Shown: positions 1 through 21,437 of the stretch, in pieces | How positions within the stretch are numbered: position 1 is the first letter of the stretch | Layout: the number at the start of each line of letters is the position of its first letter | The notes under the pieces: generated by a model | The model's database searches: none | What the model saw: the letters and a program-made list of their open reading frames with translations, nothing else | What the model was told of the DNA's origin: nothing | NCBI GenBank assembly: GCA_030158725.1 | Contig: JAOASJ010000016.1 | Span: 12,616 to 76,615 of the forward strand | Source of the DNA: Bacteroidia bacterium | GTDB lineage: Bacteria; Bacteroidota; Bacteroidia; NS11-12g; UBA955 | Direction: 5' to 3' | Length of the DNA stretch: 64,000 nucleotides | Translations under genes and position numbers: made by a program

Positions 1-132
1 GCACTAGAAAAACTAAAATTAAATCCTAACGATGTCATTATGATAGGAGATAGCTTAGAAAAAGACGTTAAAGGGGCAGAAAATTTCGGCATTAAGGCCT
101 ACCTTATAAAAGATAATACAATATTGTTTTGA
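1..132 (+). CDS. HAD-superfamily hydrolase, C-terminal fragment (gene begins upstream of the window)
   Basis: Frame 1 is open from base 1 to TGA at 130-132 and reads ALEKLKLNPNDVIMIGDSLEKDVKGAENFGIKAYLIKDNTILF. The IMIGDS..D..GA..G string resembles the C-terminal Asp motif of HAD phosphatases. The stop overlaps the TTG start of the next ORF (TTGA). Confidence 0.55.
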   Translation, partial: ALEKLKLNPNDVIMIGDSLEKDVKGAENFGIKAYLIKDNTILF

Positions 133-3279: not shown

Positions 3280-3283
3280 TAAA

Positions 3284-4063: not shown

Positions 4064-4806
4064 TTGCACTAATTCCAATGGCAGGTGCTGGGAGTCGATT
4101 TGTTGAAGCGGGTTACAACATTCCAAAACCATTGTTGCCTTTAATGGGAACACCAATGGTTGTTAAAGCGGCTTTGGCTTTACCTAGTTCTGATAAATAT
4201 ATATTTGTGGTAAGAGATTTTCAAATAAATGACTTTCAGATTGACATTCATTTGAAAAGTCATTTTTCAAATAGTGAAATCATAGTCTTAGACCATTTAA
4301 CCGAAGGTCAAGCCATTACATGTTTAGAAGCCAAGTCTTTGATTGATAATGATGAGGCTTTACTCATTGGTGCAAGCGACAATGGAATGGTATACGATAG
4401 AGCTGCGTTTCAAGAAGCAAGTATGAATGCAGATGCTTTAGTCTTTACATTTAGAAATAATCCTTCTGTTTTGGCTAAGCCACAAGCTTATGGTTGGGTT
4501 CAAGTAAATCAGTCAAATGAAGTTGAAAAAGTAAGCGTTAAAGTACCTTTGAGCAATACCCCAATGAATGACCATGCTGTGGTTGGTGCATTTTGGTTTC
4601 GCAAAGGTTCTATGTTTGTAGAGGCAGCTGAGCATATGGTTGCGAACAATAAACGTATTAATAATGAATTTTATGTTGATGAATGCATCAATGATTTAAT
4701 TGAATTAGGATATAAAGTTAAAGCTTTTGAAATTGAACATTATGTTTGTTGGGGTACACCAAATGATTATGAAACTTTTAATTATTGGGAAAAGTTTTTT
4801 AAATGA
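4060..4806 (+). CDS. Sugar-phosphate nucleotidyltransferase-fold protein (paralog 2)
   Basis: It begins MIALIPMAGAGSRF and has a C-terminal WGTPNDYETF. It is clearly paralogous to the preceding ORF. Its start overlaps the upstream stop (ATGA). Confidence 0.6.
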   Translation: MIALIPMAGAGSRFVEAGYNIPKPLLPLMGTPMVVKAALALPSSDKYIFVVRDFQINDFQIDIHLKSHFSNSEIIVLDHLTEGQAITCLEAKSLIDNDEALLIGASDNGMVYDRAAFQEASMNADALVFTFRNNPSVLAKPQAYGWVQVNQSNEVEKVSVKVPLSNTPMNDHAVVGAFWFRKGSMFVEAAEHMVANNKRINNEFYVDECINDLIELGYKVKAFEIEHYVCWGTPNDYETFNYWEKFFK

Positions 4807-6067: not shown

Positions 6068-7642
6068 ATGAAGCAATTTTTTAAGAAATACACCATTGAA
6101 TTGGTTTTTGGCTTGGTATTTATTGGACTTTCCTTGCGCTTAAATCTGCAGTTTTTATTAGGATCTAACATCAACACAATTATTGCAGGACACGACGAAT
6201 ATATAGCCGTTAAAGAAGTGTATTCAATACTTCACCCAATCTCACTTAAACATTTTGTAATGGCAGTTATTAGTGGTAACGCTTTATATTATGGTCGCAT
6301 TATGTTTTACATTGATGCAATTGTCGCATTTTTACCTTTTAAAATCTGGGGTACAACAGGTATGGTATTGGCCATTAGAATGTTTCATGCAATTTGTATT
6401 CTGTCTGCATTTCTGATTTTAAGTAAAACCTTTTTGGAAACCAATAGACAAAGGGTCTTGTTTTTTATTGGGTCGTTCTGTTTGTATTTTACAATGTACT
6501 TCATTATGATGCCAAAGCCTGAGCCTCTGCAACTTTTGATTTTGACATTGTTTTTACATCAACTTAAAAAATCCAATTGGTCATTTGGAAAGCATTTTAT
6601 TCTTTTAGGAATAGCATACGGACTTAAATTTAATGTCCTGTTAATTCTACCAATTGTATTTCTTTTACCTCTTATAAAGTCTGGTAAATTGAATATTACT
6701 AATTTAGTCTTACCAGGATTTCTATCTGTTTTTTATTTTATTATCGGTGTTATAATTGCAATACCTTGCCTGATATTAAGTCCTATAAAACCAATCTTTT
6801 TAAGCACTTATTTGCATGAAACCTTTGGGGGTACAGAAAAAGGATATGATTCAGCAACATTAAGTTTTAATGATTGGATGAGCTCTGGCCTTGGTGGTTC
6901 TTATTTGGGACATTGGACATTGGCTTACCCATTCTTAGTGTTTGTTTTGGTATTAATCTTTATTAATTTCAAAAAGTCATTTAAGACACAGAATTTTTCT
7001 TCAATTTTATTCATGGTAATGGGCTTGATTTTTGCTTTGGTTATCATGTTTAAAACCAAAAGACTATGGCCTCATTATTTATGGACTGCCTATATCTTCA
7101 TGCTATTAGGCATGATAGGTTCCCTACCAATTTTGGTAGATACATATATCAAAAAGATTCAGATAATAATAGTGTCTCTATTTGTCAGCTCTTCATTGTT
7201 TTTTTATTGTTATCGGGAGTTACCTTTGTATTTGGGTTTAGATCAAAGACCCGAAGTTCAGAATAATATTAGATGGAGCGAATTGGCCATCCAATATATT
7301 AACACAAAGTATAAAGGTTCTAAAATAGGTACGGATGGCTCATTTTTGTATCCATTTAAGGATTTTGTTGAGGTAGATTTGTATCATCCTTTTGCAACGA
7401 CTAGGCCAAAGGAAGCCGAAACACCATACATGTGGTATGTTGATGCTCCACAAAAGATTTGGGATGATTCAAATAAATTAGTGGTTTTCTATAAACGCTT
7501 ACCACCAAGAATGCTTAAAGAAAATCCTAATGTTTATGTTGGTAGACATCAAGAATTAAATACTTTATTTATTGAGAAAACAATGAAAGAGTTTGATTTA
7601 GATACTACTATAGGAGAATTACATATTTATAAACGCCGTTGA
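6068..7642 (+). CDS. Polytopic GT-C-like membrane glycosyltransferase (ArnT/PMT-like), tentative
   Basis: 524 aa with more than 10 hydrophobic spans. The first loop after TM1 carries AGHDEYIAVKEVYSIL, which resembles the DE..Y motif of the GT39/GT83 families. It lies 13 nt downstream of the GT2 gene. Confidence 0.5.
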   Translation: MKQFFKKYTIELVFGLVFIGLSLRLNLQFLLGSNINTIIAGHDEYIAVKEVYSILHPISLKHFVMAVISGNALYYGRIMFYIDAIVAFLPFKIWGTTGMVLAIRMFHAICILSAFLILSKTFLETNRQRVLFFIGSFCLYFTMYFIMMPKPEPLQLLILTLFLHQLKKSNWSFGKHFILLGIAYGLKFNVLLILPIVFLLPLIKSGKLNITNLVLPGFLSVFYFIIGVIIAIPCLILSPIKPIFLSTYLHETFGGTEKGYDSATLSFNDWMSSGLGGSYLGHWTLAYPFLVFVLVLIFINFKKSFKTQNFSSILFMVMGLIFALVIMFKTKRLWPHYLWTAYIFMLLGMIGSLPILVDTYIKKIQIIIVSLFVSSSLFFYCYRELPLYLGLDQRPEVQNNIRWSELAIQYINTKYKGSKIGTDGSFLYPFKDFVEVDLYHPFATTRPKEAETPYMWYVDAPQKIWDDSNKLVVFYKRLPPRMLKENPNVYVGRHQELNTLFIEKTMKEFDLDTTIGELHIYKRR

Positions 7643-8859
7643 AAAATACCTGTTATTATTTTGTAGATGATATTGAAACATCTTTTGTAATCAATGATAT
7701 CAAGAGGTTTTCAAAACAATATGAAAATATTGTCTTGTTTTCGGCCGAGATTATTGATGATAAGAGTGGATTGCCTACAAACGTTAGCGTTATTGACAAT
7801 TTTATAGATTGGTCTAAATTTAACAAGCTAAAGATTGTTATTACTCAATTTTGGACTTTAATTTATTTGTACATTAGTGAAATTTTAGCACTAAAAAAGT
7901 TTCTTCCATTGAAAGAATCAATAGCTCTTTTGTGTTCTAATATTTATAAAGCAGAAGAAGTTATAAGACATTTAAATGAAAGAAAAATACACGTCAAATC
8001 GGATAGTTTATTTTATTCTTTTTGGTTCTATGACTGTATATATCTTGCCTATTTGAAAAGAATTCATTTTGCCCCAAAAATTATAACTAGAGCACATGGG
8101 GGAGATGTTTTTGAAGAAAGAAGTTCACTAAGAGGAAAAGTTCTGTTTAGAAATTTTCAGATGAAACATTTCGATTATGTTTTTTCTGTTTCCAAAATTG
8201 GAGCTGATTATCTTAGAAAAAAATATGTAAAATTTCAATCAAAGATACAAGTATCCTATTTAGGTTCAGATGAGCCTAAACACTTAAATGAAATAAATAA
8301 TGAAGTGTTTACTTTGGTTAGTTGCGCGAAAATCCGAGATATAAAACGCGTTTACTTAATTGCAGAGGCCTTAATGTACATCAATTTTCCTTTAGTTTGG
8401 TACCATTTGGGAGATGAAAATTTAGATGCACATAATGATCCTACAGTGGAAATTTATGTTCAAAACATGCTTAAATTAAAGGAAAACAAGCATGTTAAAT
8501 CAATACAGTTGGGTCAATTATCGAATGAAGAAATATTTGAATTTTACACTAAGACTAAATGTAATTTATTTATCAGTTTGTCAGCAACTGAAGGAATACC
8601 AGTTAGTATGATGGAAGCCATAAGTTTTGGGTTGCCAATTTTATCAACAGATGTTGGTGGTTGCAATGAAATTGTAAATAATATTACTGGAATTTTAATT
8701 CCTGAAAATTTGCCAGCGGAATCTATTGCAAAGTCAATAATAGAATTTAAAGATTCTGCAATGAATATCAATGATTACAGGAGAAATATTCGAACTTTTT
8801 GGATAGAAAATTTTAACCAAACCACAAACTATTCTAAGTTTTTTGAACTAATAAAATGA
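7639..8859 (+). CDS. GT4-family glycosyltransferase
   Basis: The C-terminal SLSATEGIPVSMMEAISFGLPILSTDVGGCNEIV is the E-x7-E GT-B signature. The TTG start overlaps the upstream stop. Confidence 0.75.
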   Translation: MKNTCYYFVDDIETSFVINDIKRFSKQYENIVLFSAEIIDDKSGLPTNVSVIDNFIDWSKFNKLKIVITQFWTLIYLYISEILALKKFLPLKESIALLCSNIYKAEEVIRHLNERKIHVKSDSLFYSFWFYDCIYLAYLKRIHFAPKIITRAHGGDVFEERSSLRGKVLFRNFQMKHFDYVFSVSKIGADYLRKKYVKFQSKIQVSYLGSDEPKHLNEINNEVFTLVSCAKIRDIKRVYLIAEALMYINFPLVWYHLGDENLDAHNDPTVEIYVQNMLKLKENKHVKSIQLGQLSNEEIFEFYTKTKCNLFISLSATEGIPVSMMEAISFGLPILSTDVGGCNEIVNNITGILIPENLPAESIAKSIIEFKDSAMNINDYRRNIRTFWIENFNQTTNYSKFFELIK

Positions 8860-9866
8860 ACAATCAAGTTGAAATAATCGCTGAAATAGCGCAAGCCCAT
8901 GATGGTAGTCTTGGTATTGCGCATTCATATATAGATGCACTCCATGGAACTGGAGTAGATACAATTAAATTCCAAATGCATATAGCATCTCATGAGAGTA
9001 GTGCTTACGAACAGTTTAGAGTAAATTTTAGCTATGAGGATAAAACTAGATTTGATTATTGGGACAGAATGGGATTTACCTTTGAACAATGGGTTGGGTT
9101 AAAACAACATTGTGAAGATAAAGGCTTTAAATTTTTATGCTCTCCTTTTTCAATAAAAGCAGTAGAATGGATGGAGCAACTAGGTGTTGATAGGTATAAG
9201 ATTGCAAGTGGAGAAATAACCAATTATCTAATGATTGATCGTATTTGTAGCACAGGTAAATCTATACTATTGTCTAGTGGAATGAGCAGTTATGCGGAAA
9301 TTCTAGAATCGGTGGATTTTATTCATTCACATAATGGTAAATTTGAAGGCGTGTTTCAGTGTACAACTTCATATCCAACTCCACCAGAAAAATATGGTTT
9401 GAATGTATTGGCAGAGCTAAAAAATAAAACCAATGTTAAGGTTGGTTTAAGCGACCATTCTGGAGAGGTTTTTGCACCACTTGCAGCTGTTGCTTTAGGT
9501 GCTCAAATGCTTGAAATGCATGTTGTTTTTGATAAGAAAATGTTTGGGCCAGATGCAGCATCTTCTTTAACTATTTCAGATTTTAGAACCCTTTGTGAAG
9601 GAGTAAGGAAAATTGAAAAGGCATTAAGCAATCCTATTCAAAAAGACCATGTAGAGGCTTATAAAGAAATGAAGGTAATGTTTGGAAAGTCTATAACTGC
9701 TTCAAAAGATTTGAACAAAGGCCATATAATTCGAATCGAAGATTTAGAAACTACTAAGCCAGGAGATAAAGGTATTATGGCAAAAGATTACAGCAAGATT
9801 ATTGGAAAGGAATTGAATAAAGATATTTCAATCCATCAATTTATACAAAACAGTGATTTAGTATGA
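8856..9866 (+). CDS. neuB: Nonulosonic acid synthase (NeuB/LegI family; N-acetylneuraminate or legionaminate synthase)
   Basis: 336 aa. It shows IAEIAQAHDGSLGIAHSYIDA, YKIASGEITNY and GLSDHSGE, plus a C-terminal SAF-like segment (IIRIEDLETTKPGDKGI). Confidence 0.85.
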   Translation: MNNQVEIIAEIAQAHDGSLGIAHSYIDALHGTGVDTIKFQMHIASHESSAYEQFRVNFSYEDKTRFDYWDRMGFTFEQWVGLKQHCEDKGFKFLCSPFSIKAVEWMEQLGVDRYKIASGEITNYLMIDRICSTGKSILLSSGMSSYAEILESVDFIHSHNGKFEGVFQCTTSYPTPPEKYGLNVLAELKNKTNVKVGLSDHSGEVFAPLAAVALGAQMLEMHVVFDKKMFGPDAASSLTISDFRTLCEGVRKIEKALSNPIQKDHVEAYKEMKVMFGKSITASKDLNKGHIIRIEDLETTKPGDKGIMAKDYSKIIGKELNKDISIHQFIQNSDLV

Positions 9867-11020
9867 AAAAAAGAAAAATTTGTGTCATAATAACAGCTCG
9901 CCCAAGTTATAGTAGGGTAAGAACTGCTTTAATTGCTATTAACAATCATCCCGATTTGGAATTGCAATTGGTTGTGGCGGCTTCTGCATTGCTTGATCGA
10001 TATGGTTCAACCATAAATTACATTGAGGCTGATGGTTTTAAAATTGCCGAGAAGGTGTATATGATCATTGAAGGTGCAACTTTAACCAGTTCAGCTAAAA
10101 CGACAGGTATAGGAATTATGGAATTAGCCACAACGTTTGATAATTTAAAACCTGATATGGTATGTACCATAGGTGATCGTTATGAAACTATGGCAACAGC
10201 AATTGCAGCAAGTTATATGAATATTCCTTTGGTCCATATACAAGGGGGTGAAGTAACTGGAAATATAGATGAGAAAGTTAGACATGCAATTACCAAACTT
10301 TCAGATTTGCATCTAGTATCAAATGATGATGCAAAACAGAGGTTAATAAAAATGGGTGAGTATGAAGATAAAATTCATATTACAGGTTGTCCAAGTATAG
10401 ATATTGCTAAAATGGTTTTAGATCAACCAGAACTTGATTTTGATCCTTGTAATAAATATGGTGGAGTTGGTAAATATATTGATACCACTAAAGACTATAT
10501 TGTTGTCATGCAACACCCTGTGACCACTGAATTTGAAATGGCAAAATCTCAGGCCGAGAGTTTAATTAAGATAGTTCATGAATTAGATATGCCAGTTTTT
10601 TGGTTTTGGCCAAATCCTGATGCTGGTAGTGATGGTACAAGTAGCGCATTAAGAACACATAGAGAAGAGAATCCCGATAACCATATTCGTTTCTTTAAAA
10701 ATTTAGAAGGTGCTGATTTCCTTAAATTACTATACCATTCTAAATGTTTAATAGGAAATAGCAGTGTAGGAATTCGCGAATGTTCTTATTTAGGAATTCC
10801 AGTTGTAAATATTGGAAGCAGACAAAACAGGCGCTTAAGAGGTAAAAATGTAATTGATACAGATTACAATCAAGAAAACTTAAGAAATGCCATTTTAAAA
10901 CAAGTAAACCATGGTCATTATCCAATTGAAAATTTATATGGTAATGGTCATGCAGGTACAGCAATTGCTGATGTGTTAGTAAATGCCGGAACAGAAATTA
11001 AAAAAGTAATTAGTTATTAA
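9863..11020 (+). CDS. neuC: Hydrolysing UDP/GDP-N-acetylhexosamine 2-epimerase (NeuC/LegG family)
   Basis: 385 aa. It shows ICVIITARPSYSRV, GDRYETMATAIAAS, HIQGGEVTGNIDEKVRHAITKLS and GNSSVGIRE. Confidence 0.85.
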   Translation: MKKRKICVIITARPSYSRVRTALIAINNHPDLELQLVVAASALLDRYGSTINYIEADGFKIAEKVYMIIEGATLTSSAKTTGIGIMELATTFDNLKPDMVCTIGDRYETMATAIAASYMNIPLVHIQGGEVTGNIDEKVRHAITKLSDLHLVSNDDAKQRLIKMGEYEDKIHITGCPSIDIAKMVLDQPELDFDPCNKYGGVGKYIDTTKDYIVVMQHPVTTEFEMAKSQAESLIKIVHELDMPVFWFWPNPDAGSDGTSSALRTHREENPDNHIRFFKNLEGADFLKLLYHSKCLIGNSSVGIRECSYLGIPVVNIGSRQNRRLRGKNVIDTDYNQENLRNAILKQVNHGHYPIENLYGNGHAGTAIADVLVNAGTEIKKVISY

Positions 11021-11024
11021 AAAT

Positions 11025-12221
11025 ATGTCAAAAACGATGCACGGACTTCCTGAGGAAGTTATTTTTTGTAAAAAATGTTGTATCTCTAATCAGAGACCAA
11101 GTACAAAGAGAGAATTTTCAAAAAAAACAAGTAAAGATACAGATACCATTGGTTTAGGTGCCGATGGAATTTGTGATACTTGTAAATGGTTTGAGTTTAA
11201 AAAGACCATTGATTGGGAACAAAGAGAAAAACAATTGGAAGAATTATGTAATAAATTCAGAAGAAATGATGGAACTTATGATGTAATTGTACCTTCTAGT
11301 GGTGGAAAAGATAGTTTTTATGTAGCCCATCAATTGAAATACAAATATGGAATGAATCCACTTACTGTTACATGGGCTCCACATCAATATACAGAAATAG
11401 GTTGGAAAAATTTTGAAAGTATGATTGATGCTGGTTTTGACAATGTTTTGGTAACTCCAAATGGCAAAGTACATAGAGTGCTTACTAGATTGGCTTTCGA
11501 AAATTTAGTTAATCCTTTTCAACCATTTATTATTGGACAAAAAAATGTGGCTCCTAGAGCAGCATTACAATATGGTGTTCAGTTAATCATGTATGGTGAA
11601 AATCAAGCTGAGGCTCATAATAAATTAGAAGAAAATTTTAGTCCACTTATGGACATTTCTCACTTCTGTAAAAAAGAAGGTGAAGAATTATATTTTGGAG
11701 GTGTTCATATCAATGATTTAAAGAATCATGGTGTTGAAGAAAAAGATCTTTATTTATATAAACCATTAGATGAGAAAGATATTATCAATGCAGGTTTAGA
11801 GGTACATTTCTACAGTTTCTACAAAAATTGGTCTCCTCAAGAGAATTATTATTACGCAATGGAGCACTCAGGTTTTGAATCAAATCCTGATGGTAGAACT
11901 GAAGGTACTTATACTAAATTTGTTAGTTTAGATGATAAAATTGATGGTCAACATTACTACACCATGTTTATTAAATTTGGACAAGGTCGTGCCATGAATG
12001 ATGTTAATAGAGACATAAGAGATGGTTTTATAAGCCGTGAAGAAGGTATTGAATTAATTAACAAGTATGATGGTGAATTCCCTAAAAAATACTTCCAAGA
12101 AGTGTTAGATTACATGGGAATAAGCGAAGAACGCTATTGGGAAGTAATTGATAATGCACGTTCTCCACATTTATGGGACAAAGTAAATGGAGAGTGGGTC
12201 TTGAAGCATAAGACTGTATAA
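11025..12221 (+). CDS. N-acetyl sugar amidotransferase (WbpG/WbuX/PseA family, PP-loop ATPase)
   Basis: It has an N-terminal Cys cluster (CKKCCISNQRPS ... CDTCKW), the PP-loop VPSSGGKDS, and the conserved IMYGENQAE. Confidence 0.8.
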   Translation: MSKTMHGLPEEVIFCKKCCISNQRPSTKREFSKKTSKDTDTIGLGADGICDTCKWFEFKKTIDWEQREKQLEELCNKFRRNDGTYDVIVPSSGGKDSFYVAHQLKYKYGMNPLTVTWAPHQYTEIGWKNFESMIDAGFDNVLVTPNGKVHRVLTRLAFENLVNPFQPFIIGQKNVAPRAALQYGVQLIMYGENQAEAHNKLEENFSPLMDISHFCKKEGEELYFGGVHINDLKNHGVEEKDLYLYKPLDEKDIINAGLEVHFYSFYKNWSPQENYYYAMEHSGFESNPDGRTEGTYTKFVSLDDKIDGQHYYTMFIKFGQGRAMNDVNRDIRDGFISREEGIELINKYDGEFPKKYFQEVLDYMGISEERYWEVIDNARSPHLWDKVNGEWVLKHKTV

Positions 12222-12304
12222 AATCAAGTTTAGATTTGTATTGCATTAAATGGGTAGTAATTTAATTTCTTAATTATTTTACCTATTCAATAGGTGTATT
12301 TTTT

Positions 12305-13054
12305 ATGAAAAGAGTAATAGCAAGATTAGATATTAAAGGCAATAGATTGGTTAAAGGTATCCATATGGAAGGATGGAGATTTTTGCCAAACCATCCCAAT
12401 GATTATTGTTACAAATACTATTTGCAAGGCGTTGATGAGATAATTTATGTCGATGCTGTTGCTAGCTTATACAACAGAGATTCACTCAAAGAAATCATAA
12501 AAAAAACAACAGATAATGTTTTTGTTCCAATTACAGTTGGAGGAGGTATTCGTTCACTCGAAGATGCCTACGATATTTTAAGAAGTGGAGCCGACAAAGT
12601 TGCAATCTGTACACAGGCCGTTAAGAACCCAGAAATAATATCAGAAATAGCCGGCAAATTTGGAAATCAATGCATGGTACTGTCTATTCAAGCAAAGAAG
12701 AATCAGTCTGGTTCCTATTCGGTTTGGTATGATGTTGCTAGAGAAAAAACAGAAATTGATGTTATTGAATGGGCTCAAAAAGGGGAAGAACTAGGTGCCG
12801 GTGAAATTCTTTTAACATGCATTGACCATGAAGGTTTAGAAAGAGGGATGAATACAGAACTTATTTCTATGGTTTCTAAAGCAGTAAATATACCTGTGAT
12901 AGCTAGCGGCGGATTAGGAAAATCAGGTCATTTTGTAGATGCTATAGAGAGCGGTGCCGATGCGGTGGCTATTGCGAAAGCATTGCATTATGACAAACTT
13001 AATATTCAAGATATTAAGAACGAAGCAAGAAGTAAAAATATAAAAGTACGTTGA
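12305..13054 (+). CDS. hisF: HisF-like cyclase subunit paralog (glycosyl amidation-associated, WbuZ-type)
   Basis: It shows VIARLDIKGNRLVKG, PITVGGGIRS, ADKVAI, the Asp-containing CIDHEG and VIASGGLG. The context is polysaccharide synthesis, not a histidine operon. Confidence 0.8.
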   Translation: MKRVIARLDIKGNRLVKGIHMEGWRFLPNHPNDYCYKYYLQGVDEIIYVDAVASLYNRDSLKEIIKKTTDNVFVPITVGGGIRSLEDAYDILRSGADKVAICTQAVKNPEIISEIAGKFGNQCMVLSIQAKKNQSGSYSVWYDVAREKTEIDVIEWAQKGEELGAGEILLTCIDHEGLERGMNTELISMVSKAVNIPVIASGGLGKSGHFVDAIESGADAVAIAKALHYDKLNIQDIKNEARSKNIKVR

Positions 13055-13686
13055 TGACAAAAAATGTTTCAATAATCGACTATGGGATGAGCAATCTTCT
13101 TAGTATTTGCCGTGCTTTTGAGCATGTTGGAGCAAATGTAAAAATAGTAAGAACTGAAGCAGAAATTCTGAATTCAGATTACCTAGTACTTCCAGGAGTT
13201 GGTGCATTTCCAGATGGAATGAATGAATTAAAGTCAAGAAATTTGATAAATCCTATTAGGAACTTCTCATTAAAGGAAAGACCACTTTTAGGCATTTGTT
13301 TGGGCATGCAGATGTTGCTATCCAAAGGATTTGAACATAAAGAAACTGAGGGTTTAGGAATCATAGAAGGAGATGTATTGCCTTTGCCTAAAAATATGCC
13401 CAATTTTAAAGTGCCAAATATTAATTGGCATGCAATAAATGAACCTTCAAATGGCAAATGGTCGAATTCTCTATTAAGTGATACAAAGATTGAAACATGT
13501 TTTTATTTTGTACACTCCTATTTTGCAAATCCAAAAGACACTAATGATGTTCTAGCTGAAAGTAGCTTTGGTACTCTGAAGTTTGCTGCAGCAGTCAAAA
13601 GAAACAATATTTGTGGAACACAATTTCACCCAGAAAAGAGTGGTGAGGATGGGTTAAAATTGTTACAAAAGTTTTTAGAGTTATAA
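13054..13686 (+). CDS. hisH: HisH-like glutamine amidotransferase subunit paralog (WbuY-type)
   Basis: It shows IIDYGMSNL, LPGVGAF, the catalytic Cys in LGICLGMQML, and FHPEKSG. I preferred the ATG at 13054 over the TTG at 13051. Confidence 0.8.
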   Translation: MTKNVSIIDYGMSNLLSICRAFEHVGANVKIVRTEAEILNSDYLVLPGVGAFPDGMNELKSRNLINPIRNFSLKERPLLGICLGMQMLLSKGFEHKETEGLGIIEGDVLPLPKNMPNFKVPNINWHAINEPSNGKWSNSLLSDTKIETCFYFVHSYFANPKDTNDVLAESSFGTLKFAAAVKRNNICGTQFHPEKSGEDGLKLLQKFLEL

Positions 13687-13691
13687 AGAAA

Positions 13692-14381
13692 ATGAAAGTT
13701 CTTTGTATAATTCCAGCAAGGGGAGGCTCGAAAGGAATTCCTAAGAAAAATATTATTGATGTCAATGGTAAGCCTTTGATAGCGTATTCTATAGAACCTG
13801 CAATTGAAGCACAAAAGCTTGGCATAATTGATAAGGTTATAGTATCCACTGATTCTGAAGAAATAGCAAATATTTCATTAAAATATGGCGCTGAAATTCC
13901 TTTTTTAAGGCCATCTGAAATCTCTGGTGATAAAGCTAAATCAGTCGAATTCATAATGCATGCACTCGACTTTTATAGCAAGCAAGGAGTTAATTACGAC
14001 ACGGTATTATTGCTTCAACCAACTTCACCTCTTCGCACATTAAACGATTTATTGGCATCTTTAAATTTATATAAGGAAGCTGAAAATGACAGTTTAATTT
14101 CTGCATATGAAGAAGAATATATAAATGACTTGGTAATTTATAGAATGGGTGAAGATGGGAAAACGTCAATACCAGTGAACCATTTGCACAACAAGGGAGT
14201 TAGAAGACAAGAACATGGTTCTTTATATGTGAGAAACGGATGTATTTATATAAGTTCTGCTGAATTAATTGGTAAAGGATATGTTATCGGTGAGACTCCT
14301 TTAATGTATATTATGGAAAAGAATAAATCCGTAAACGTTGATACAATGGAAGATTTGGAGTTGCTTAGAAAATTATTATGA
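13692..14381 (+). CDS. neuA: CMP-nonulosonic acid synthetase (acylneuraminate cytidylyltransferase family)
   Basis: 229 aa. It shows CIIPARGGSKGIPKKNI, VSTDSEEI, LLQPTSPLR and RRQE. Confidence 0.8.
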   Translation: MKVLCIIPARGGSKGIPKKNIIDVNGKPLIAYSIEPAIEAQKLGIIDKVIVSTDSEEIANISLKYGAEIPFLRPSEISGDKAKSVEFIMHALDFYSKQGVNYDTVLLLQPTSPLRTLNDLLASLNLYKEAENDSLISAYEEEYINDLVIYRMGEDGKTSIPVNHLHNKGVRRQEHGSLYVRNGCIYISSAELIGKGYVIGETPLMYIMEKNKSVNVDTMEDLELLRKLL

Positions 14382-15304
14382 AGATCGGAATTTTAGAACC
14401 AGCAGACTTCTCGAGTATAGCTTCTCATAAGTTATCTAAGATTGGAAGTATTGAAAACTATTCTGGTGAAAAATTGGAAGAATTTTTATGTAACAAGGAG
14501 ATTATTTTTGTTCGTTTAAACTTCGATATAAATAAGGGTTTTTTAGAAGCTGCACCAAATTTAAAGTACATATGTTCACCGACCACTGGCTTAAATCATA
14601 TTGATGTTAATTATTGTCAATCTAAAGGGATTGAAATAATTTCGTTAAAAGGTGAAACTGATTTTTTAAATACTATTAGGGCTACTCCAGAACATACTCT
14701 GGGTCTAATTTTAGCTTTAAAAAGAAATTACAATTTTGCTTTTTTAAAAAGCGATAACTCAGAATGGAATAGAAACCCTTATAGGGGCTATGAGATTTAT
14801 GGTAGTAAAATTGGTATTGTTGGTTTTGGAAGAGTAGGAAAAATTCTATCTTCTTATTTAAAAAACATGGGTGCTTCTGTTGCTTTCTATGATATAAATA
14901 AAGATATTCAAGAGGAAGGTGTTCACAAATTCGATTCAATAGAATCTTTAATTGATGCTTGCGAGACAGTAGTTTTATGCAGCAGTTATACTGTTGAATA
15001 CGGATCTATCATTAATGAAAAGGAAATTGATGCATTAAAGAATAAATATTTTATTAATACAGCCAGGGCAGAGTTGACAAATGAATCATATTTATCTCAA
15101 CGAGCTTTAGAAGGCCATTTTAAAGGAATAGCAATTGATGTGATTCAAAATGAGCAAAGTGCTCAAAATAATTTGAAATCATGGTTAGAAGCAGCTGATA
15201 AATACAATGTAATTGTTACTCCACATATCGGTGGAGCTACATATTCATCTATGAATAGAACGGAGGAGTTTATCAGCGATAAATTATTAATGAGTTTTGA
15301 GTAA
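14378..15304 (+). CDS. D-isomer-specific 2-hydroxyacid dehydrogenase family protein
   Basis: It has the NAD loop IGIVGFGRVGK, ARAEL and the catalytic-region VTPHIGGAT. Its start overlaps the neuA-like stop (ATGA). Confidence 0.7.
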   Translation: MKIGILEPADFSSIASHKLSKIGSIENYSGEKLEEFLCNKEIIFVRLNFDINKGFLEAAPNLKYICSPTTGLNHIDVNYCQSKGIEIISLKGETDFLNTIRATPEHTLGLILALKRNYNFAFLKSDNSEWNRNPYRGYEIYGSKIGIVGFGRVGKILSSYLKNMGASVAFYDINKDIQEEGVHKFDSIESLIDACETVVLCSSYTVEYGSIINEKEIDALKNKYFINTARAELTNESYLSQRALEGHFKGIAIDVIQNEQSAQNNLKSWLEAADKYNVIVTPHIGGATYSSMNRTEEFISDKLLMSFE

Positions 15305-16859
15305 TAAGAAAGTTTTCATTGTTGATTCATTAAACGAAGAAGGTCTACAAAAGGCTTTAGAACTTGAATCAAATTGTATAATTAGCAATGAGGTTAAATT
15401 AAGCAGTTCTATTCCAGAGGGAATTGAGATTATTAATGCTGAAATTTATCGTGTTGACGGCACTTGGGAGATTTATAATTACATACAAAACATAGTTAAT
15501 AGACTTTGTTTAAGAACCCCAAAGCAATTTATTAGTTCTGGTATCAATTTGCAACCTGCCATGTGCAAATTGATTTATTGGACAAATTACAGATTGGGTG
15601 CATTAAAAGTAGCCTTTAATAAAATTGAGGATACAAAAAGTAACGTCAATAATTTTCAGTTTATTAATGCAAATAAATCAAAAGAAGTACTCAAATACTT
15701 TAAAAACTATCTTTCAAATAATTGGCAATGGTTAAAATCCAAACATAAAAGCTTAAAAGTATTAGAATCCAATGCTAAAATAGGAGTACTTATTAATAAT
15801 GAATTTGAATTAAAGTTATACCAAGATACAATTAAATTAATTGGAAATTGCATCGTTTTTTACAACGGAAATATTGATTTAAAAGAATATGATTTTAAAT
15901 CAGAAAAAATACAATTTGTAAATTTATCAAATTTGAAAAGAGTTGTTTATCAACCTTTTTCAAATCCATTTAACAAAAATTCTGAAGAGCTATTTGTAAC
16001 AAATATTATCTTAAAAGATTGGATTGAAATTGCAAATGAATTAGAACATTATAAATATATTAGTAAAACAGGAATAAAGAAATTATTAATAAATGTTGGT
16101 GAGAATTTAGCATTGAGAAATTTAATGCCACAAGTTTTTGAATCTAATATAATGGTCTATAATTCCATGAATGGTTTGAAAAGTGCTGAGGGGCATGATG
16201 CAGATGTCAATTTTGATAAATGGTTTGTTTGGGATCAGGATATGTTTAATCTGTTAAATAAACAATGTCATATACCTGCTGAAAAATTAATCATAAGTGG
16301 GCATTTGTCTGAGGATCAAATTGCAGATCATAAATTTCAAAATTCAATACAAATTGATTTAGAAAGTATTGAAAATAAAAAAGTTATTTCTATTTTTTCA
16401 GTTCGTGGTCATAGGAAAGAAAAAGTTGATGCATTTAAGGTTTTGTATGATTTTTTAGAATCGCACAAAGATTTCTTTCTAATTGTTAAACCACATCCTT
16501 TAGAAAAAATGTCTGACTATATATTTCCTAATTCCAGTTTAAAGAATGTATATTTTATTCCTGAAGAATTAAAGAACTCCAAGTCTGCTCTATTTGATCA
16601 GTTGACTTTATCAGACCTAACAATTGTATTCGGTTCAACTGTAGCATTAGAGAGTAATTGGATGGGTGTGCCTTGTATTACTTACGAATACAAAGAAAAA
16701 TCATTTATTTATAATTTAGAATCTGCAGACACTCAGCATATAAAGGATGAGAATCAATTGTTATTGAGACTCGTAAATACTGAGAAGAAGATTACTAAGT
16801 CGAATCCTTTGAAACCTAAAGTATGTGAAGTTATATCTTCACATTTATTGACTATATAA
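15297..16859 (+). CDS. Uncharacterised 520-aa protein, paralog A (GT-B-like C-terminal half with KPHP motif)
   Basis: TTG start. It shares strings with paralog B: YRV.GTW, IYWTNY, LIN.GEN, VYNSMNGLKSAEG.DA, NFD.WFVWD, KLIISGHL, KKVISIF, KPHPLEK and SDLTIVFGSTVALESNWMGVPCIT. I recognise no named family with confidence. Confidence 0.6.
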   Translation: MSNKKVFIVDSLNEEGLQKALELESNCIISNEVKLSSSIPEGIEIINAEIYRVDGTWEIYNYIQNIVNRLCLRTPKQFISSGINLQPAMCKLIYWTNYRLGALKVAFNKIEDTKSNVNNFQFINANKSKEVLKYFKNYLSNNWQWLKSKHKSLKVLESNAKIGVLINNEFELKLYQDTIKLIGNCIVFYNGNIDLKEYDFKSEKIQFVNLSNLKRVVYQPFSNPFNKNSEELFVTNIILKDWIEIANELEHYKYISKTGIKKLLINVGENLALRNLMPQVFESNIMVYNSMNGLKSAEGHDADVNFDKWFVWDQDMFNLLNKQCHIPAEKLIISGHLSEDQIADHKFQNSIQIDLESIENKKVISIFSVRGHRKEKVDAFKVLYDFLESHKDFFLIVKPHPLEKMSDYIFPNSSLKNVYFIPEELKNSKSALFDQLTLSDLTIVFGSTVALESNWMGVPCITYEYKEKSFIYNLESADTQHIKDENQLLLRLVNTEKKITKSNPLKPKVCEVISSHLLTI

Positions 16860-16872
16860 ACACTAAAACACT

Positions 16873-18435
16873 ATGCTAGTTGCTAAAAATTTTATTTCTT
16901 ACAATTACTACCTGTGGGCAAAATCTAAAGGAGTGAAAGTATTCTTATTTAATGAAATAGATTTTATTCCAGATGAATCAGAAGGATCAGGAGAGATTTT
17001 CTTTAATTGCACTTCGTACAGGGTAGAAAGTACATGGTATACATGGACTGAGAATGAGAAACTAATACAATCTTTTAAAATAAAGTTCCCAAGTTTATTT
17101 AAAATTAAAAACTATGATATAACCTTGGCGGTGCAAAAAGCCATGTATTGGGCAAATTTTAAATCAGGTTTTCTTTGGTATTGCATTGTTAATTTTTTCC
17201 CAAATGAAAAGATTTTTTATGCAGATTCATTGCATCAATCTGGAAAATTAGGTGCAATTGGAAGATATTTTAAATTGGTTGAGTTTAAGCGAAAAAATAA
17301 AATTAAAAAGATAGTTGAGAAACGATCAGAATTTAAGTTTGCTATTCACTTAAAAAGCGATTTTCAATTAGGTTTTTATATTGATTTAATCGAGAAAACT
17401 AAGCATGATAAACAATTTTCATTATTTATAGAACCTAAGGTTAATGAACAATATTTAAAGGAACTTGGAATAGCAGATTTTCACAAAATTCAACATTCAG
17501 ATAAAATTTATCCTGTACCACTGATTAACCCATTTAAATTAAGTAAAAAAGATAGTTTTACGCTAAATATTATACTAATTCATTGGAAAGAAATTAATGA
17601 GAACATTCAATCAGCTGAAGCAATTTGCCACACAGGTTTGAAAGCAACATTAATCAATGAAGGGGAAAATGGTATTTATGGGGCAATAGTTTCTGAGGTA
17701 TTTAACAAAAATGGTGTAAAAGTATATAACACCATGAATGGTGTAAAATCAGGAGAGGCGCAAGATGCTTTTATAAATTTTGACTATTGGTTTGTTTGGG
17801 ACACCCAAATGAAGGAAATGCTTGCAACCACAAATAATATATCAAGAGATAAGTTAATAATTAGCGGACATTTAATTCAAGATTTAATTCAAAATTATCA
17901 ATACCATAATTCTCTTAATGTTAATTTGGAAAGTTTAAAATCCAAAAAGGTTATATCAATATTTACAGTTAAAGGAAAACGTTTTGCAAAATTGGAATCA
18001 TTAAAATTCTTATATAATTTATTGGAAGAAGATGAATCTATCGAATTGTTTATTAGACCTCATCCAGCTGAAAAACCTGAAGACTATGTCTTACCTGAAA
18101 TTGATCATGAAAGAGTACATTTAGCCAATTATAATTCAAAAAACTTAAATAGCAGCTTGCATGACCTATTATTGATATCAGACTTAGCCATTGTTTACGG
18201 ATCCACTGTTGCGTTGGATGCTAAATGGATGGGGGTTCCATGTATAACTTTTGAAATTCGTGAAAAATCAATGATATACTGTGCTGATAATGATAAAATA
18301 AAACATGTAAGAACTTTAGAAGATTTTATCACACTTGTGAAATCTTCATTATCCAAAAAGCAGAATAATATTGATGCAAATAAATCTTCAGTATCAGATT
18401 TTATCTTGGAAGAAATCATTAAAAACAATCATTGA
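16873..18435 (+). CDS. Uncharacterised 520-aa protein, paralog B (GT-B-like C-terminal half with RPHP motif)
   Basis: ATG start. It is collinear with paralog A along its whole length and is exactly the same length (520 aa). Confidence 0.6.
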   Translation: MLVAKNFISYNYYLWAKSKGVKVFLFNEIDFIPDESEGSGEIFFNCTSYRVESTWYTWTENEKLIQSFKIKFPSLFKIKNYDITLAVQKAMYWANFKSGFLWYCIVNFFPNEKIFYADSLHQSGKLGAIGRYFKLVEFKRKNKIKKIVEKRSEFKFAIHLKSDFQLGFYIDLIEKTKHDKQFSLFIEPKVNEQYLKELGIADFHKIQHSDKIYPVPLINPFKLSKKDSFTLNIILIHWKEINENIQSAEAICHTGLKATLINEGENGIYGAIVSEVFNKNGVKVYNTMNGVKSGEAQDAFINFDYWFVWDTQMKEMLATTNNISRDKLIISGHLIQDLIQNYQYHNSLNVNLESLKSKKVISIFTVKGKRFAKLESLKFLYNLLEEDESIELFIRPHPAEKPEDYVLPEIDHERVHLANYNSKNLNSSLHDLLLISDLAIVYGSTVALDAKWMGVPCITFEIREKSMIYCADNDKIKHVRTLEDFITLVKSSLSKKQNNIDANKSSVSDFILEEIIKNNH

Positions 18436-18437
18436 TT

Positions 18438-19097
18438 ATGAATATTTGGAAACATAAGTATCCTCAAAATATATGGGCAAGTGAAATAGTAAAGATTTTA
18501 AAATCTAATGTAGACTATACATCTGGTACAATAGTAGACGCACCATGTGGTAATGGCATTATTGGCAACTTAGTTTCTAAAGAGTTTGATACCTCTAAAA
18601 TTTTATTGTTGGACAATGATAGTTCTTTATCAAAATCACCATATGTAATAAATGAGAAAATTGATTATAGAATAGAGGATATTTTTAATTTTAAAATTGA
18701 TGGAAAAGATAATACCTGGTTGTTAATTAATTCGCTGTATTGTTTGCCCAATTCTGAAGTTTTAATATCAGGCAATAGAGATAGATTTAAATATATTATT
18801 GCTGTTTTCCCGAACATTGAAAGTTCAAATTATAAATACTTTACTAAAAAGCATCCTGAATTCTCTAATCCATCATCAAAAGATATTAAATCTACCATAG
18901 AACTTTTTAATCAAAGTGGGTATATTGTTGTTTCTCAAAAAAAAATAACAAAGCTAGCTTTTCATAAATGGAATAATGTCTTTGACCGTTTGAAGTTCCC
19001 ATTGATATTTAAAAATATAATTTATTTAACTTTTGAAAAAATATTGTTTTTTATATCAGGACATTACACGATAATTGCATTTAAGCGCAGTGAATAG
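18438..19097 (+). CDS. Class I SAM-dependent methyltransferase
   Basis: Motif I is IVDAPCGNGIIG, followed by the acidic LLLDND. I preferred the ATG at 18438 over the TTG at 18432. Confidence 0.6.
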   Translation: MNIWKHKYPQNIWASEIVKILKSNVDYTSGTIVDAPCGNGIIGNLVSKEFDTSKILLLDNDSSLSKSPYVINEKIDYRIEDIFNFKIDGKDNTWLLINSLYCLPNSEVLISGNRDRFKYIIAVFPNIESSNYKYFTKKHPEFSNPSSKDIKSTIELFNQSGYIVVSQKKITKLAFHKWNNVFDRLKFPLIFKNIIYLTFEKILFFISGHYTIIAFKRSE

Positions 19098-20127
19098 AAT
19101 AATTTTGTCATTTGATTATGAGATTTATTTTGACGGTAGTAACCGTCTGGATTCGCTCATTCAAAATACAGATGAAATTTTAAAAAGCGCTAAAAAGAGC
19201 AATTCCAAATTGGTTTTTTTTATTGATATTTATTATTTAATAAAACTTGAAGAGTATGGTTTATCTAGCCATTTTGATAAATTAAGGAATCAAATTTTAG
19301 AGATGATTGATAAAGGGCATGAAATCCAATATCACTTACATCCTCATTGGATAAATGCTCAGTACAATAAAGATAAAGACCTTTGGAAATACGATCAATT
19401 AGAATATTCCTTTACTGATATTATTAAAATTTATGGTAAAACTTTCGCGTACGATAAGTTTAATAAAGGAGTAAATAAAATGAAAGAATGGTTTGCTTAT
19501 AAACCAATGGCATATAGGGCAGGTGGATTATCAATAGATCAAAACCAAGGAGAATTATTAGAACTCTTAATTGAGAATAAATTTGAATATGATTCTAGTG
19601 TAATGCCTGGATTATATTTACAAGGTAAGTTCATACACATAGACCATAGATCTGCACCTAAAAAAGCAATATGGAATGTTGATGATACATTTTTATCAGA
19701 GTCTAAAACTTCTAGTATTGATTCATCAATAAAGGAAATTCCAGTTATGACAATTAATAAATTTGATATTCCATTGTCAGACAGAATAATGACAAGTTTA
19801 AAATATAGAGCGATTTCAGCAATTAGTGCTAAAGACGACAGTATACTTGCAAATATTGGCCGGCCTTTTGATTTAGAAATCAATCAATCAACGTATCCTA
19901 TCAGCATTACATTTGATAAATCAAAATTAGCTGATATTCTACTTTTAAAATATTTTACCAAAACATATTTTAAAAAGAACGCCAATATAATGTGCATTCT
20001 TTCCCATCCGAAAAGTTTCTTAAATCAGTCATTTGAGGTGTTTAACAACTATCTAAATTGGATTGATAAAAACAGAAATAAATATATTTTTTCTGGTTTC
20101 TCAGATATCTTAAAAAGTGAAAAATAG
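19075..20127 (+). CDS. Polysaccharide deacetylase-like (CE4-like) protein, tentative
   Basis: ILSFDYEIYFDG and HEIQYHLHPHW resemble the Asp and His metal motifs of the deacetylase fold. No ATG lies near the 5' end, so the start (TTG 19075 or GTG 19090) is uncertain. Confidence 0.45.
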   Translation: MHLSAVNRIILSFDYEIYFDGSNRLDSLIQNTDEILKSAKKSNSKLVFFIDIYYLIKLEEYGLSSHFDKLRNQILEMIDKGHEIQYHLHPHWINAQYNKDKDLWKYDQLEYSFTDIIKIYGKTFAYDKFNKGVNKMKEWFAYKPMAYRAGGLSIDQNQGELLELLIENKFEYDSSVMPGLYLQGKFIHIDHRSAPKKAIWNVDDTFLSESKTSSIDSSIKEIPVMTINKFDIPLSDRIMTSLKYRAISAISAKDDSILANIGRPFDLEINQSTYPISITFDKSKLADILLLKYFTKTYFKKNANIMCILSHPKSFLNQSFEVFNNYLNWIDKNRNKYIFSGFSDILKSEK

Positions 20128-20776
20128 TTTTTTATTCGTTGCATATCAATTCCCGCCTATGGGGGGTCCAGGTGTTCAGCGTAGTTATAATTTTGTTAGA
20201 GAGCTTAATAATGCAGGTTATTCACCAATTGTATTTACAATAACGGAAGTAGATATAGAATCTGCTAAGTATCAAAAAGATTTTTCTTTGTTAGAAAAGC
20301 TGCCTTCAAACATTAACATAGTTCGAATTGAATCAGGACAAAATTTTAAACTAGTTGAAAAGCTTATAAAATGGAGGGTATATCGTTTGTTTTGGTATGT
20401 TTTATACCCATTATTTTGGGAGAAAATGGCTAGATGGCCATTCATTGCTTATAAACAGGCAAAGAAGATTATTCTTGACAATAAACTAGATTTGGTTTAT
20501 ACCAGTTCTGGACCATTTTCTTCTCTAGTTTTAGGTTATTTATTGAAAAAAAGACTTGGCATAAAATGGGTAGCTGATTTAAGAGATCCATACACAGATG
20601 CCTATGCATGGTCATATCCTTCTAAACTGCATTGGATGGTATCAAGAATATGGGAGAAGTGGATTTTATCTAAAGTTGATGAACTTATAGTAAATACACC
20701 TGAAGTCAAGAAATTATATATCAAAAGAAATATATTACCTGAATCTAAAATTAATGTTATAACCAATGGATATTAG
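20117..20776 (+). CDS. Glycosyltransferase, N-terminal GT-B half (split gene)
   Basis: GTG start. FVAYQFPPMGGPGVQRSYNFVREL is typical of a GT4-like N-domain. The ORF ends at ITNGY-stop, the point where the interdomain linker is expected. Confidence 0.55.
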   Translation: MKNSFLFVAYQFPPMGGPGVQRSYNFVRELNNAGYSPIVFTITEVDIESAKYQKDFSLLEKLPSNINIVRIESGQNFKLVEKLIKWRVYRLFWYVLYPLFWEKMARWPFIAYKQAKKIILDNKLDLVYTSSGPFSSLVLGYLLKKRLGIKWVADLRDPYTDAYAWSYPSKLHWMVSRIWEKWILSKVDELIVNTPEVKKLYIKRNILPESKINVITNGY

Positions 20777-21437
20777 TAAACCATTATTAATTGCCTATTC
20801 AGGAAGTTTAGATGCCAAACAACCTAATTCCAACAAAGGTATTTTGATGTTTTTTAAGAGCATTTTTTGGACATATAAACACAATGTTGTAGATCCTTCA
20901 ACAAGAACAGCTTATTACCTAATAAAATCTATTGGCATTTTAAAGCGTGATTATAACATCAAACCAAGCGAGATTCAAATAGAACTTTGGGGGAATATAA
21001 ATTCTTTGAATAAGCAACATATTTTAGAAGAGGATGTTGAAGAATACTTTTCAATTGATTCTTATTTACCCAAAGATGAATCTATAAAAAGATTAAATCT
21101 AGCTGATATGCTATTTTTACCACTTGAAAAATCTAATGTAAAAGGTCAAGGAACACTTTTTATTCCTGGAAAATTATTTGAATATTTAAATACTTTAAAA
21201 CCTATTTTAGCACTTTGTGAACCTTCTGATTGTCGGAATATTATAGAAAATTCTGGTTTGGGTGTTTGTATTGATCCTGATAACCCTGAATTAATTGCCA
21301 AATGCTTATTTCCAATAATTAAAAATAAAAACTTATTGCTTGGACTTAAACCAAACAAAGAGTTTATAGAAACATTTACTTTTAAAAATAAGACACAAGA
21401 ACTTATAACTGTTCTCAAGAAGGCAAGCGTCAACTGA
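20766..21437 (+). CDS. Glycosyltransferase, C-terminal GT-B half (split gene)
   Basis: PLLIAYSGSL followed by PGKLFEYLNTLKPILAL is typical of a GT4-like C-domain. Its frame is +1 relative to the preceding ORF and is open only from 20763. Confidence 0.55.
   Translation: MDISKPLLIAYSGSLDAKQPNSNKGILMFFKSIFWTYKHNVVDPSTRTAYYLIKSIGILKRDYNIKPSEIQIELWGNINSLNKQHILEEDVEEYFSIDSYLPKDESIKRLNLADMLFLPLEKSNVKGQGTLFIPGKLFEYLNTLKPILALCEPSDCRNIIENSGLGVCIDPDNPELIAKCLFPIIKNKNLLLGLKPNKEFIETFTFKNKTQELITVLKKASVN

Follow-up and report, generated by a model that had tools for sequence, protein, structure and literature searches.

In a window of 64,000 nucleotides from a Bacteroidia bacterium (positions 12,616 to 76,615 of contig JAOASJ010000016.1, assembly GCA_030158725.1; coordinates below are those of this window), two adjacent open reading frames (ORFs), called A and B, stand within a surface-glycan cluster. 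They probably encode two soluble, cytoplasmic glycosyltransferases that take nonulosonic acids activated with cytidine monophosphate (CMP) as donors and that differ from each other in acceptor or linkage specificity. We favour this reading of the sequences and structural models because both proteins combine a predicted GT-B fold with an invariant (K/R)xHP motif and a GST nucleotide site, because their only named relatives belong to the BFO_1060 family of Tannerella forsythia, because their genes are almost universally positioned behind genes for the synthesis and CMP activation of a nonulosonate while the rest of the locus varies, and because the locus holds no other candidate, the remaining glycosyltransferases being ordinary GT2 and GT4 enzymes. 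A and B form a new family within a known class, i.e. the HP-motif GT-B enzymes that use cytidine-nucleotide donors, and not a new kind of system. The evidence is computational throughout (sequence comparison, predicted structures and gene neighbourhood).

15297 to 16859, plus strand: ORF A, 520 amino acids, TTG start; A-type, candidate CMP-nonulosonate glycosyltransferase of GT-B fold
16873 to 18435, plus strand: ORF B, 520 amino acids, ATG start; B-type paralog sharing the fold and motifs of A, candidate for a second transferase

A and B are full-length paralogs (35% identity across 446 amino acids, E = 5e-82 by BLASTP). An earlier reading of the bare sequence (hereafter the original prediction) had described them as tandem, collinear ORFs of 520 amino acids, and this description is accurate, including their positions. 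All the shared blocks that it listed are present in both proteins, among them NVGEN/NEGEN, NSMNGLKS/NTMNGVKS, NFDKWFVWD/NFDYWFVWD, SGHLSED/SGHLIQD, KPHPLEK/RPHPAEK and GSTVALE/GSTVALD (A and B, respectively), and a common GVPCIT. The two genes are separated by only 13 nt, and the stop of B overlaps the start of the next gene (from 18432), so that A, B and this next gene look co-translated. The start of A is itself overlapped by the stop of the upstream gene (14378–15304), which encodes a D-2-hydroxyacid dehydrogenase. No transmembrane segment is predicted in A or B, and a role as membrane polymerase or flippase was rejected for this reason.

Family status, fold and conserved residues

No Pfam family matches A or B at E ≤ 0.1, and this includes PF04464, Capsule_synth and Epimerase_2. 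Among named hidden Markov models (HMMs), only two NCBIfam models recognise the proteins, both below threshold. NF046086 (BFO_1060 family glycosyltransferase; curated cut-off of 200 bits) scores 50.4 bits with A (E = 1.8e-13) and 36.2 bits with B (E = 3.7e-9), while TIGR04396 (surface carbohydrate biosynthesis protein; cut-off of 125 bits) scores 33 and 40.2 bits, respectively. Moreover, a profile built from 63 family members finds no match among the sequences of the PDB, even at E ≤ 10. The pair had been called members of an unrecognised family, and the searches agree: no confident assignment to a characterised family emerged for A or B.

The relatives are equally anonymous. A word-indexed protein search returned 74 homologs, none of which carries a Pfam domain. 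Those that are named are all called 'hypothetical protein', except one B-type member (P0046), whose name at the source (JGI), 'predicted transcriptional regulator', is almost certainly a misannotation. Similarly, 'hypothetical protein' is the sole source name for the five homolog clusters that were looked up. An exhaustive profile search of 1.84 billion representatives gave no more than 107 clusters (clustering at 50% identity) for E ≤ 1e-30, and the family is therefore small. All 24 genome matches are metagenome-assembled genomes, 23 of them labelled Bacteroidota (Chitinophagaceae, Bacteroidia, Flavobacteriales); the last is a short contig from a bin labelled Alphaproteobacteria. In the literature on the later classification of transferases of the T. 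forsythia type, we found nothing that describes the A/B family.

The GT-B fold of both proteins is certain, and no solved structure is closely related to them. The AlphaFold2 models have a mean confidence score (pLDDT) of 93.5 for A and 91.3 for B, with a pTM of 0.89 each. Foldseek searches of the PDB with these models retrieved GT-B-fold enzymes exclusively, with hundreds of matches at E ≤ 1e-3, the top ones covering about 360–470 aligned columns. The 2-epimerases of uridine diphosphate-N-acetylglucosamine (UDP-GlcNAc), including NeuC, rank first, followed by the TagF-like capsule polymerase 8qoy, TagF, GT4 enzymes and the polysialyltransferase 5wcn (E = 2.7e-8). The E-values are mostly between 1e-12 and 1e-8, and the TM-scores normalised by query length between 0.36 and 0.50. 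The GT-B Rossmann look that had been attributed to the C-terminal half by eye is thus present in both models. The accompanying suggestion of structural neighbours was partly right: TagF, TagF-like capsule polymerases and a polysialyltransferase are matched, but UDP-GlcNAc 2-epimerases score best and nothing is close.

Across the 63 sequences, which represent both orthogroups, 26 alignment columns are invariant. In the numbering of A, these are K91, W95, N266, E269 and N270 (NxGEN), N289, M291, N292, G293, K295, D301, F306, W309, W312, G335, H336, D340, K376, H400, P401, E403, L432, S447, T448, W455 and E464. The main motifs are the following.

16092 to 16106, plus strand: NVGEN of A, with invariant E269, candidate general base
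17656 to 17670, plus strand: NEGEN of B, equivalent of NVGEN, with the invariant Glu
16161 to 16184, plus strand: NSMNGLKS of A, with invariant M291-N292-G293 and K295
17728 to 17751, plus strand: NTMNGVKS of B, equivalent of NSMNGLKS
16296 to 16316, plus strand: SGHLSED of A, with invariant G335, H336 and D340
17863 to 17883, plus strand: SGHLIQD of B, equivalent of SGHLSED
16488 to 16508, plus strand: KPHPLEK of A (K398-x-H400-P401-x-E403), (K/R)xHP, a CMP/cytosine-binding motif according to the literature
18055 to 18075, plus strand: RPHPAEK of B, (K/R)xHP motif
16632 to 16652, plus strand: GSTVALE of A, with invariant S447-T448, nucleotide/phosphate-binding loop of the C-terminal Rossmann domain
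18199 to 18219, plus strand: GSTVALD of B, equivalent of GSTVALE

[quoted passage not shown] Position 398 is K or R in 63 of 63 sequences, and H400 and P401 are each found in all 63, which gives the pattern (K/R)xHP. According to a structural paper of 2026, this pattern is conserved among the sialyltransferases of families GT29, GT38, GT42, GT52 and GT80 and the retaining Kdo transferases of families GT99 and GT107; in these enzymes the K/R is normally bonded to the ring of the cytosine, against which the Pro packs (PMC12887879).

A deep search also reached distant relatives of about 600 amino acids, which pass or approach the thresholds of the Pfam families Glyphos_transf, Capsule_synth and Epimerase_2, in addition to sub-threshold matches to BFO_1060 and TIGR04396. 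Compared by hhalign, the A/B family and these relatives are homologous from NxGEN to the C-terminus (99.8% probability, E = 3.8e-29), and E269, G335/D340, S365, H400-P401-E403 and S447-T448 are paired with invariant residues of the relatives. E269 aligns with a conserved DE of these proteins and, in NeuC-type epimerases, with the position of the catalytic Asp (GDR), while SGHLSED aligns with their GxxRxD, itself aligned with TGVPRTD of TarL. N292 occupies the position of their invariant His (QHG). The profile of the relatives matches TarL (E = 2.8e-9) at GxxRxD, HP and SS/ST, and UDP-GlcNAc 2-epimerases equally well; with the window-type NeuC family, hhalign gives 96–97% probability across the whole fold, whereas the A/B family itself gives a non-significant 1.8% with NeuC. 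In PDB searches with the distant relatives, by profile or by single sequence, the alignments to TagF and TarL start at GxxRxD and none reaches the QHG region. The replacement of a catalytic His by Asn in A and B is therefore deduced from spacing.

Gene neighbourhood and the two orthogroups

We compared related loci by tblastn, with the window proteins as queries against the fetched loci. The gene order of the window is kept in relatives whose A-type protein is only 38–48% identical. Among the 25 loci with at least about 1.5 kb of upstream sequence, 24 (L001–L015, L017–L022 and L028–L030) have the A/B-like gene within a few kb downstream of a cytidylyltransferase gene, usually accompanied by genes for NeuB, NeuC, WbuX, HisF and HisH. 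The same company is found around more remote proteins. A divergent member (P0103; 310 bits against the family profile) lies in a cluster of the pseudaminic acid (Pse) type, with NeuB, a cytidylyltransferase, a PseB-like dehydratase and a DegT aminotransferase. A 645-amino-acid distant relative (P0184) lies in an archaeal-looking cluster with NeuB, DegT, a cytidylyltransferase and a formyltransferase, and is directly followed by a 560-amino-acid paralog (E = 2e-22 against the profile of the relatives; L033, 8001–11592, GCA_025698945.1). Tandem pairs therefore recur in the superfamily outside Bacteroidota. The association with cytidylyltransferase genes that had been noticed in the window is thus a general one. 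However, the pair does not sit directly after the cytidylyltransferase gene, as had been thought: the D-2-hydroxyacid dehydrogenase gene intervenes. In some relatives, this dehydrogenase is swapped for an Acyl_transf_3 gene.

According to BLAST scores, the 74 homologs are divided into 43 A-type and 31 B-type proteins. In a rough neighbour-joining tree of the ORFs of these loci, an A clade and a B clade each hold members of the paired loci. The sister group of B is a clade of single copies, and two A-like single copies are basal. A and B are old, separately conserved orthogroups. The pair is kept in ten genome loci, while about 12 loci have a single copy, either A-like or B-like. One B-like single copy (L018) is nested beside B of the window, which looks like a secondary loss of A; another (L016) lies 1.2 kb from the end of its contig, with the upstream gene out of view. 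Several fixed differences between the orthogroups are found beside the active-site candidates (A/B: V/E at 267, L/G at 271 and H/Q at 300), in addition to position 303 (D vs. an aromatic residue or His) and position 375 (E vs. variable). In one lineage, the two proteins are fused: P0075, of 1055 amino acids, has an A-type N-terminal half and a B-type C-terminal half, i.e. in genomic order. Five contigs, which come from three or more sequencing runs, carry this fusion within the same cassette (L028, 10001–13168; L029; L030). The runs appear to belong to one study, and all these occurrences may therefore come from one population.

In the window, which is part of a Bacteroidota chromosome, the surface-glycan cluster extends from about 129 to 34339 and is followed by genes for UvrA, MetH, LptD and a protein with a type IX secretion signal. 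The genes surrounding A and B are listed below.

8856 to 9866, plus strand: nonulosonate synthase of the NeuB family (282 bits with TIGR03569, under the equivalog cut-off)
9863 to 11020, plus strand: NeuC-type hydrolysing UDP-GlcNAc 2-epimerase (TIGR03568, 385 bits, above the cut-off)
11025 to 13686, plus strand: WbuX amidotransferase, WbuZ/HisF-like and HisH-like proteins, an acetamidino-modification set
13692 to 14381, plus strand: CTP_transf_3 cytidylyltransferase, PseF-like (148 bits), which would supply the donor in its CMP-activated form
14378 to 15304, plus strand: D-2-hydroxyacid dehydrogenase (phosphoglycerate dehydrogenase-like), between the cytidylyltransferase and A
18432 to 20127, plus strand: weakly methyltransferase-like protein of 221 amino acids and weakly polysaccharide-deacetylase-like protein of 350 amino acids, both syntenic with the A/B pair
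20117 to 21437, plus strand: split GT4 glycosyltransferase, with separate ORFs for the N-domain (20117–20776) and the C-domain (20766–21437)

The sugar activated here would be a CMP-linked and probably acetamidino-modified nonulosonate, of either the neuraminic acid (Neu) or the legionaminic acid (Leg) type. The NeuB-like protein scores under both the NeuB and the PseI equivalog cut-offs. In hydrolysing 2-epimerases, GGE is generally preceded by an acidic residue or His; the NeuC of the window reads HIQGGE, and the NeuC homologs of related loci have the same Q in their consensus.

Downstream of the pair, the first ORF of the split GT4 corresponds to the Glyco_transf_4 N-domain only, and orthologs of the second match Glyco_trans_1_4. 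The syntenic loci and two divergent ones (L031 and L032) all have the two ORFs separate, in every case just downstream of the A/B-like gene, and the split GT4 looks like a true two-chain GT-B enzyme travelling with the candidate nonulosonate transferases. Genes for a carbamoyltransferase, a GDSL protein and additional GT4/GT1 enzymes are found further downstream. L031 has a clear methyltransferase gene after its A/B-like gene, and L032 a clear Polysacc_deac_1 gene just downstream of its own. The Leg locus of T. forsythia UB4 is also separated from its transferase gene by one for a methyltransferase (PMC5420450).

At the upstream end of the cluster, the ORF at 129–2249 (706 amino acids) combines about seven predicted transmembrane segments with a domain of the phosphoribulokinase/uridine-kinase type. 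Next come an ORF resembling class II aldolases and two that resemble nucleotidyltransferases, and the genes of this region (129–4806) may form an activation pathway for some substituent. A protein of 524 amino acids with about ten hydrophobic segments (6068–7642) has no Pfam or NCBIfam match. Many related loci keep its gene upstream of that for NeuB, and the protein is a candidate for a flippase or polymerase from a family not yet described.

Proposed function and alternative explanations

If A and B are CMP-nonulosonate transferases, each paralog would bind the CMP-nonulosonic acid produced by the upstream genes and would move its nine-carbon sugar onto a growing surface glycan. From alignment to characterised families, the C-terminal Rossmann domain would hold the CMP, with K398 (R in B) contacting the cytosine, H400-P401 placed at the phosphate leaving group, where H400 would act as stabiliser, and S447-T448 together with E/D452 holding the phosphate and ribose. 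The N-terminal domain would provide the acceptor site and the base, most likely the invariant E269. We infer the donor, these catalytic roles and the division of labour between A and B. Two different transfers are most likely, since the orthogroups, old and separate, have one catalytic set in common but are set apart by fixed positions next to it. These transfers may be sequential, e.g. with one nonulosonate placed on a hexose and another on that first nonulosonate; we favour sequential transfers because both paralogs look catalytically complete, because copy number varies and because a fusion exists.

A more specific proposal, which we hold only tentatively and consider rather unlikely, is that A and B together act as the two modules of an oligomerase or polymerase of nonulosonates. 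It is drawn by analogy with KpsC, the closest functional analogue, and this likeness motivates the idea of a di- or oligo-nonulosonate. One module might add a legionaminic- or neuraminic-type acid to the acceptor sugar and the other might extend the nonulosonate, or the linkages might alternate. The product would then be a di-, oligo- or poly-nonulosonate glycan on the surface of uncultured Bacteroidota from freshwater or soil.

Several observations weigh against a function in nonulosonate transfer. The matches to BFO_1060 and TIGR04396 are far under their cut-offs and confined to the C-terminal nucleotide-binding domain. The nearest solved structures are UDP-GlcNAc 2-epimerases and not sialyltransferases, and every structural match is remote (query-normalised TM-score of 0.36–0.50). 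The D/E-D/E-G motif of sialyltransferases is not literally present, A reading N-V-G-E-N and B N-E-G-E-N, with E269 as the sole invariant acid at this place. The most divergent homolog (31% identical; L027) has no cytidylyltransferase gene in the 2.4 kb of available upstream sequence; on its 5-kb contig, it follows a methyltransferase gene and an AsnB-like gene. Finally, the 4,6-dehydratase and the DegT aminotransferase of the early Leg/Pse steps were not found in the whole 64-kb window; the alternatives are a diamino precursor that is synthesised elsewhere and a product that is a Neu-type acid with an acetamidino group.

Other explanations start from the same fold. A, B or both might be TagF-like phosphotransferases, taking polyol- or sugar-phosphate from a cytidine diphosphate (CDP) donor to build a teichoic-acid-like phosphodiester polymer, and TagF and TagF-like capsule polymerases are indeed among the top structural matches. 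The distant relatives pass Pfam Glyphos_transf, their profile aligns with TarL as reported above, and two nucleotidyltransferase-like genes and a kinase-like gene are found upstream, at 129–4806. We nevertheless judge this explanation improbable. A and B have no PF04464 match, and their genes adjoin the CMP-nonulosonate genes and not the other nucleotidyltransferases. In addition, the invariant His of QHG in the relatives is an invariant Asn (N292) in 63 of 63 A/B members, according to a partly indirect mapping: this His lies 127 residues ahead of the HP His, vs. 133 between H300 and H433 of TarL, and the equivalence follows from motif order and spacing. The H300N variant of TarL is catalytically dead (PMC10901376). 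The original prediction had proposed transferases or polymerases installing either a nonulosonic acid or a CDP-linked unit; the computable tests support transfer of a nonulosonic acid and leave polymerisation hypothetical, while the invariant Asn weakens the CDP-polyol part. It would also be improbable for A and B to be GT-B glycosyltransferases with another donor (UDP-, guanosine diphosphate- or CMP-Kdo-type) that build the same glycan and share the locus on that account. The fold alone leaves the donor unfixed, and several further glycosyltransferases are encoded in the locus. Nevertheless, (K/R)xHP is invariant and is known from CMP-donor sialyltransferases and retaining Kdo transferases (PMC12887879), and the place behind the cytidylyltransferase gene stays constant even among very divergent loci, which vary in their other parts.

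Enzymes from the lineage of the UDP-GlcNAc 2-epimerases, epimerase- or hydrolase-like and acting on a nucleotide sugar during the synthesis or modification of the nonulosonate, without transfer, are suggested by the best Foldseek matches of both models (NeuC on top) and by the alignment of the distant relatives with NeuC (96–97%) and with MnaA in the PDB. This explanation is very hard to sustain, however. The A/B profile is not significantly similar to NeuC (1.8%), no Pfam Epimerase_2 match is obtained, and the locus already has a full-scoring NeuC. The position of HP in NeuC reads WPNP, not (K/R)xHP. Of the catalytic acid positions, the first alone is conserved (E269), and the following ones hold an invariant M291 and a variable hydrophobic residue (L294), as judged from a transitive and thus indirect alignment; the catalytic roles of these acids in 2-epimerases are those of WecB, SiaA and GNE. 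Moreover, genetic evidence shows the nearest family with a named HMM to be a transferase (PMC5420450). An obligate heterodimer, with one catalytic paralog and the other as scaffold or specificity subunit, would fit the conserved tandem, the translational coupling and the natural A–B fusion of one lineage. Yet every invariant active-site candidate is kept in both orthogroups, and the existence of about 12 single-copy loci implies that neither partner is strictly required, which leaves this arrangement with very little probability.

Legionaminic, pseudaminic and sialic-type acids are found on many bacteria and archaea, but the enzymes known to attach them are very few. This scarcity was stated explicitly by Tomek et al. 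(2017), and, going by the reference list of PMC12887879, the first dedicated Pse-transferase family, GT118, dates from 2024. The A/B family provides a concrete and testable set of candidate nonulosonate transferases, and its series of pairs, single copies and fusion is a ready comparison for how acceptor or linkage specificity is encoded. If confirmed, the assignment would improve the annotation of Bacteroidota surface-glycan loci and supply enzymes for the chemoenzymatic synthesis of nonulosonate glycans. Should the KpsC-like polymerase proposal be true, A and B would found a new glycosyltransferase family in CAZy.

Comparison with known systems

The closest solved folds are those of the UDP-GlcNAc 2-epimerases (NeuC/WecB/MnaA, PF02350), with which A and B share a remote ancestry through intermediate relatives. 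Unlike these enzymes, A and B have one conserved catalytic acid position and (K/R)xHP in place of H/W-x-N-P, and direct profile similarity is not significant. TagF and TarL (PF04464) have in common with A and B the GT-B fold, the order of HP, the GxxRxD-like motif and SS/ST, and a cytidine-nucleotide donor (presumed for A and B). In contrast, the position of their base His appears to be an invariant Asn in A and B, which have no PF04464 match and no predicted transmembrane segment and whose genes are surrounded by nonulosonate genes and not by CDP-polyol genes.

The (poly)sialyltransferases of families GT38, GT52 and GT80 share with A and B the GT-B fold, (K/R)XHP, an acidic base in the N-domain and a CMP-nonulosonate donor, base and donor being presumed for A and B. 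Nevertheless, no sequence similarity is detectable, D/E-D/E-G is degenerate in A and B, and the latter carry an extra N-terminal region of about 150 residues with the invariant K91 and W95. KpsC (GT107) also has (K/R)XHP and uses a CMP-ulosonic acid, and its two paralogous modules, which add beta-2,4 and beta-2,7 Kdo alternately (PMC12887879), parallel the A/B pair and its fusion. However, the donor of KpsC carries Kdo and not a nonulosonate, its N-domain is reduced and displaced (PMC12887879), A and B have no Capsule_synth match, and weak similarity to KpsC is found only in the distant relatives.

In T. forsythia, the homologs of BFO_1060, Tanf_01245 and TFUB4_00887, are required for the addition of the terminal Pse or Leg derivative; when they are deleted, the O-glycan loses precisely its terminal Pse5Am7Gra or Leg derivative, which returns on complementation (PMC5420450). 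NF046086, the model of this family, is the best named HMM match for A, although the match is limited to residues ~350–490 and the N-terminal two-thirds are unrelated at the sequence level. The T. forsythia transferases are shorter (~445 vs. 520 amino acids) and encoded by one gene, whereas A and B are a conserved pair in which D/E-D/E-G is not literal. Like A and B, they are soluble Bacteroidota proteins of the GT-B/TagB-like type with an HP motif, and their genes are located just downstream of the genes for CMP-Pse or CMP-Leg biosynthesis.

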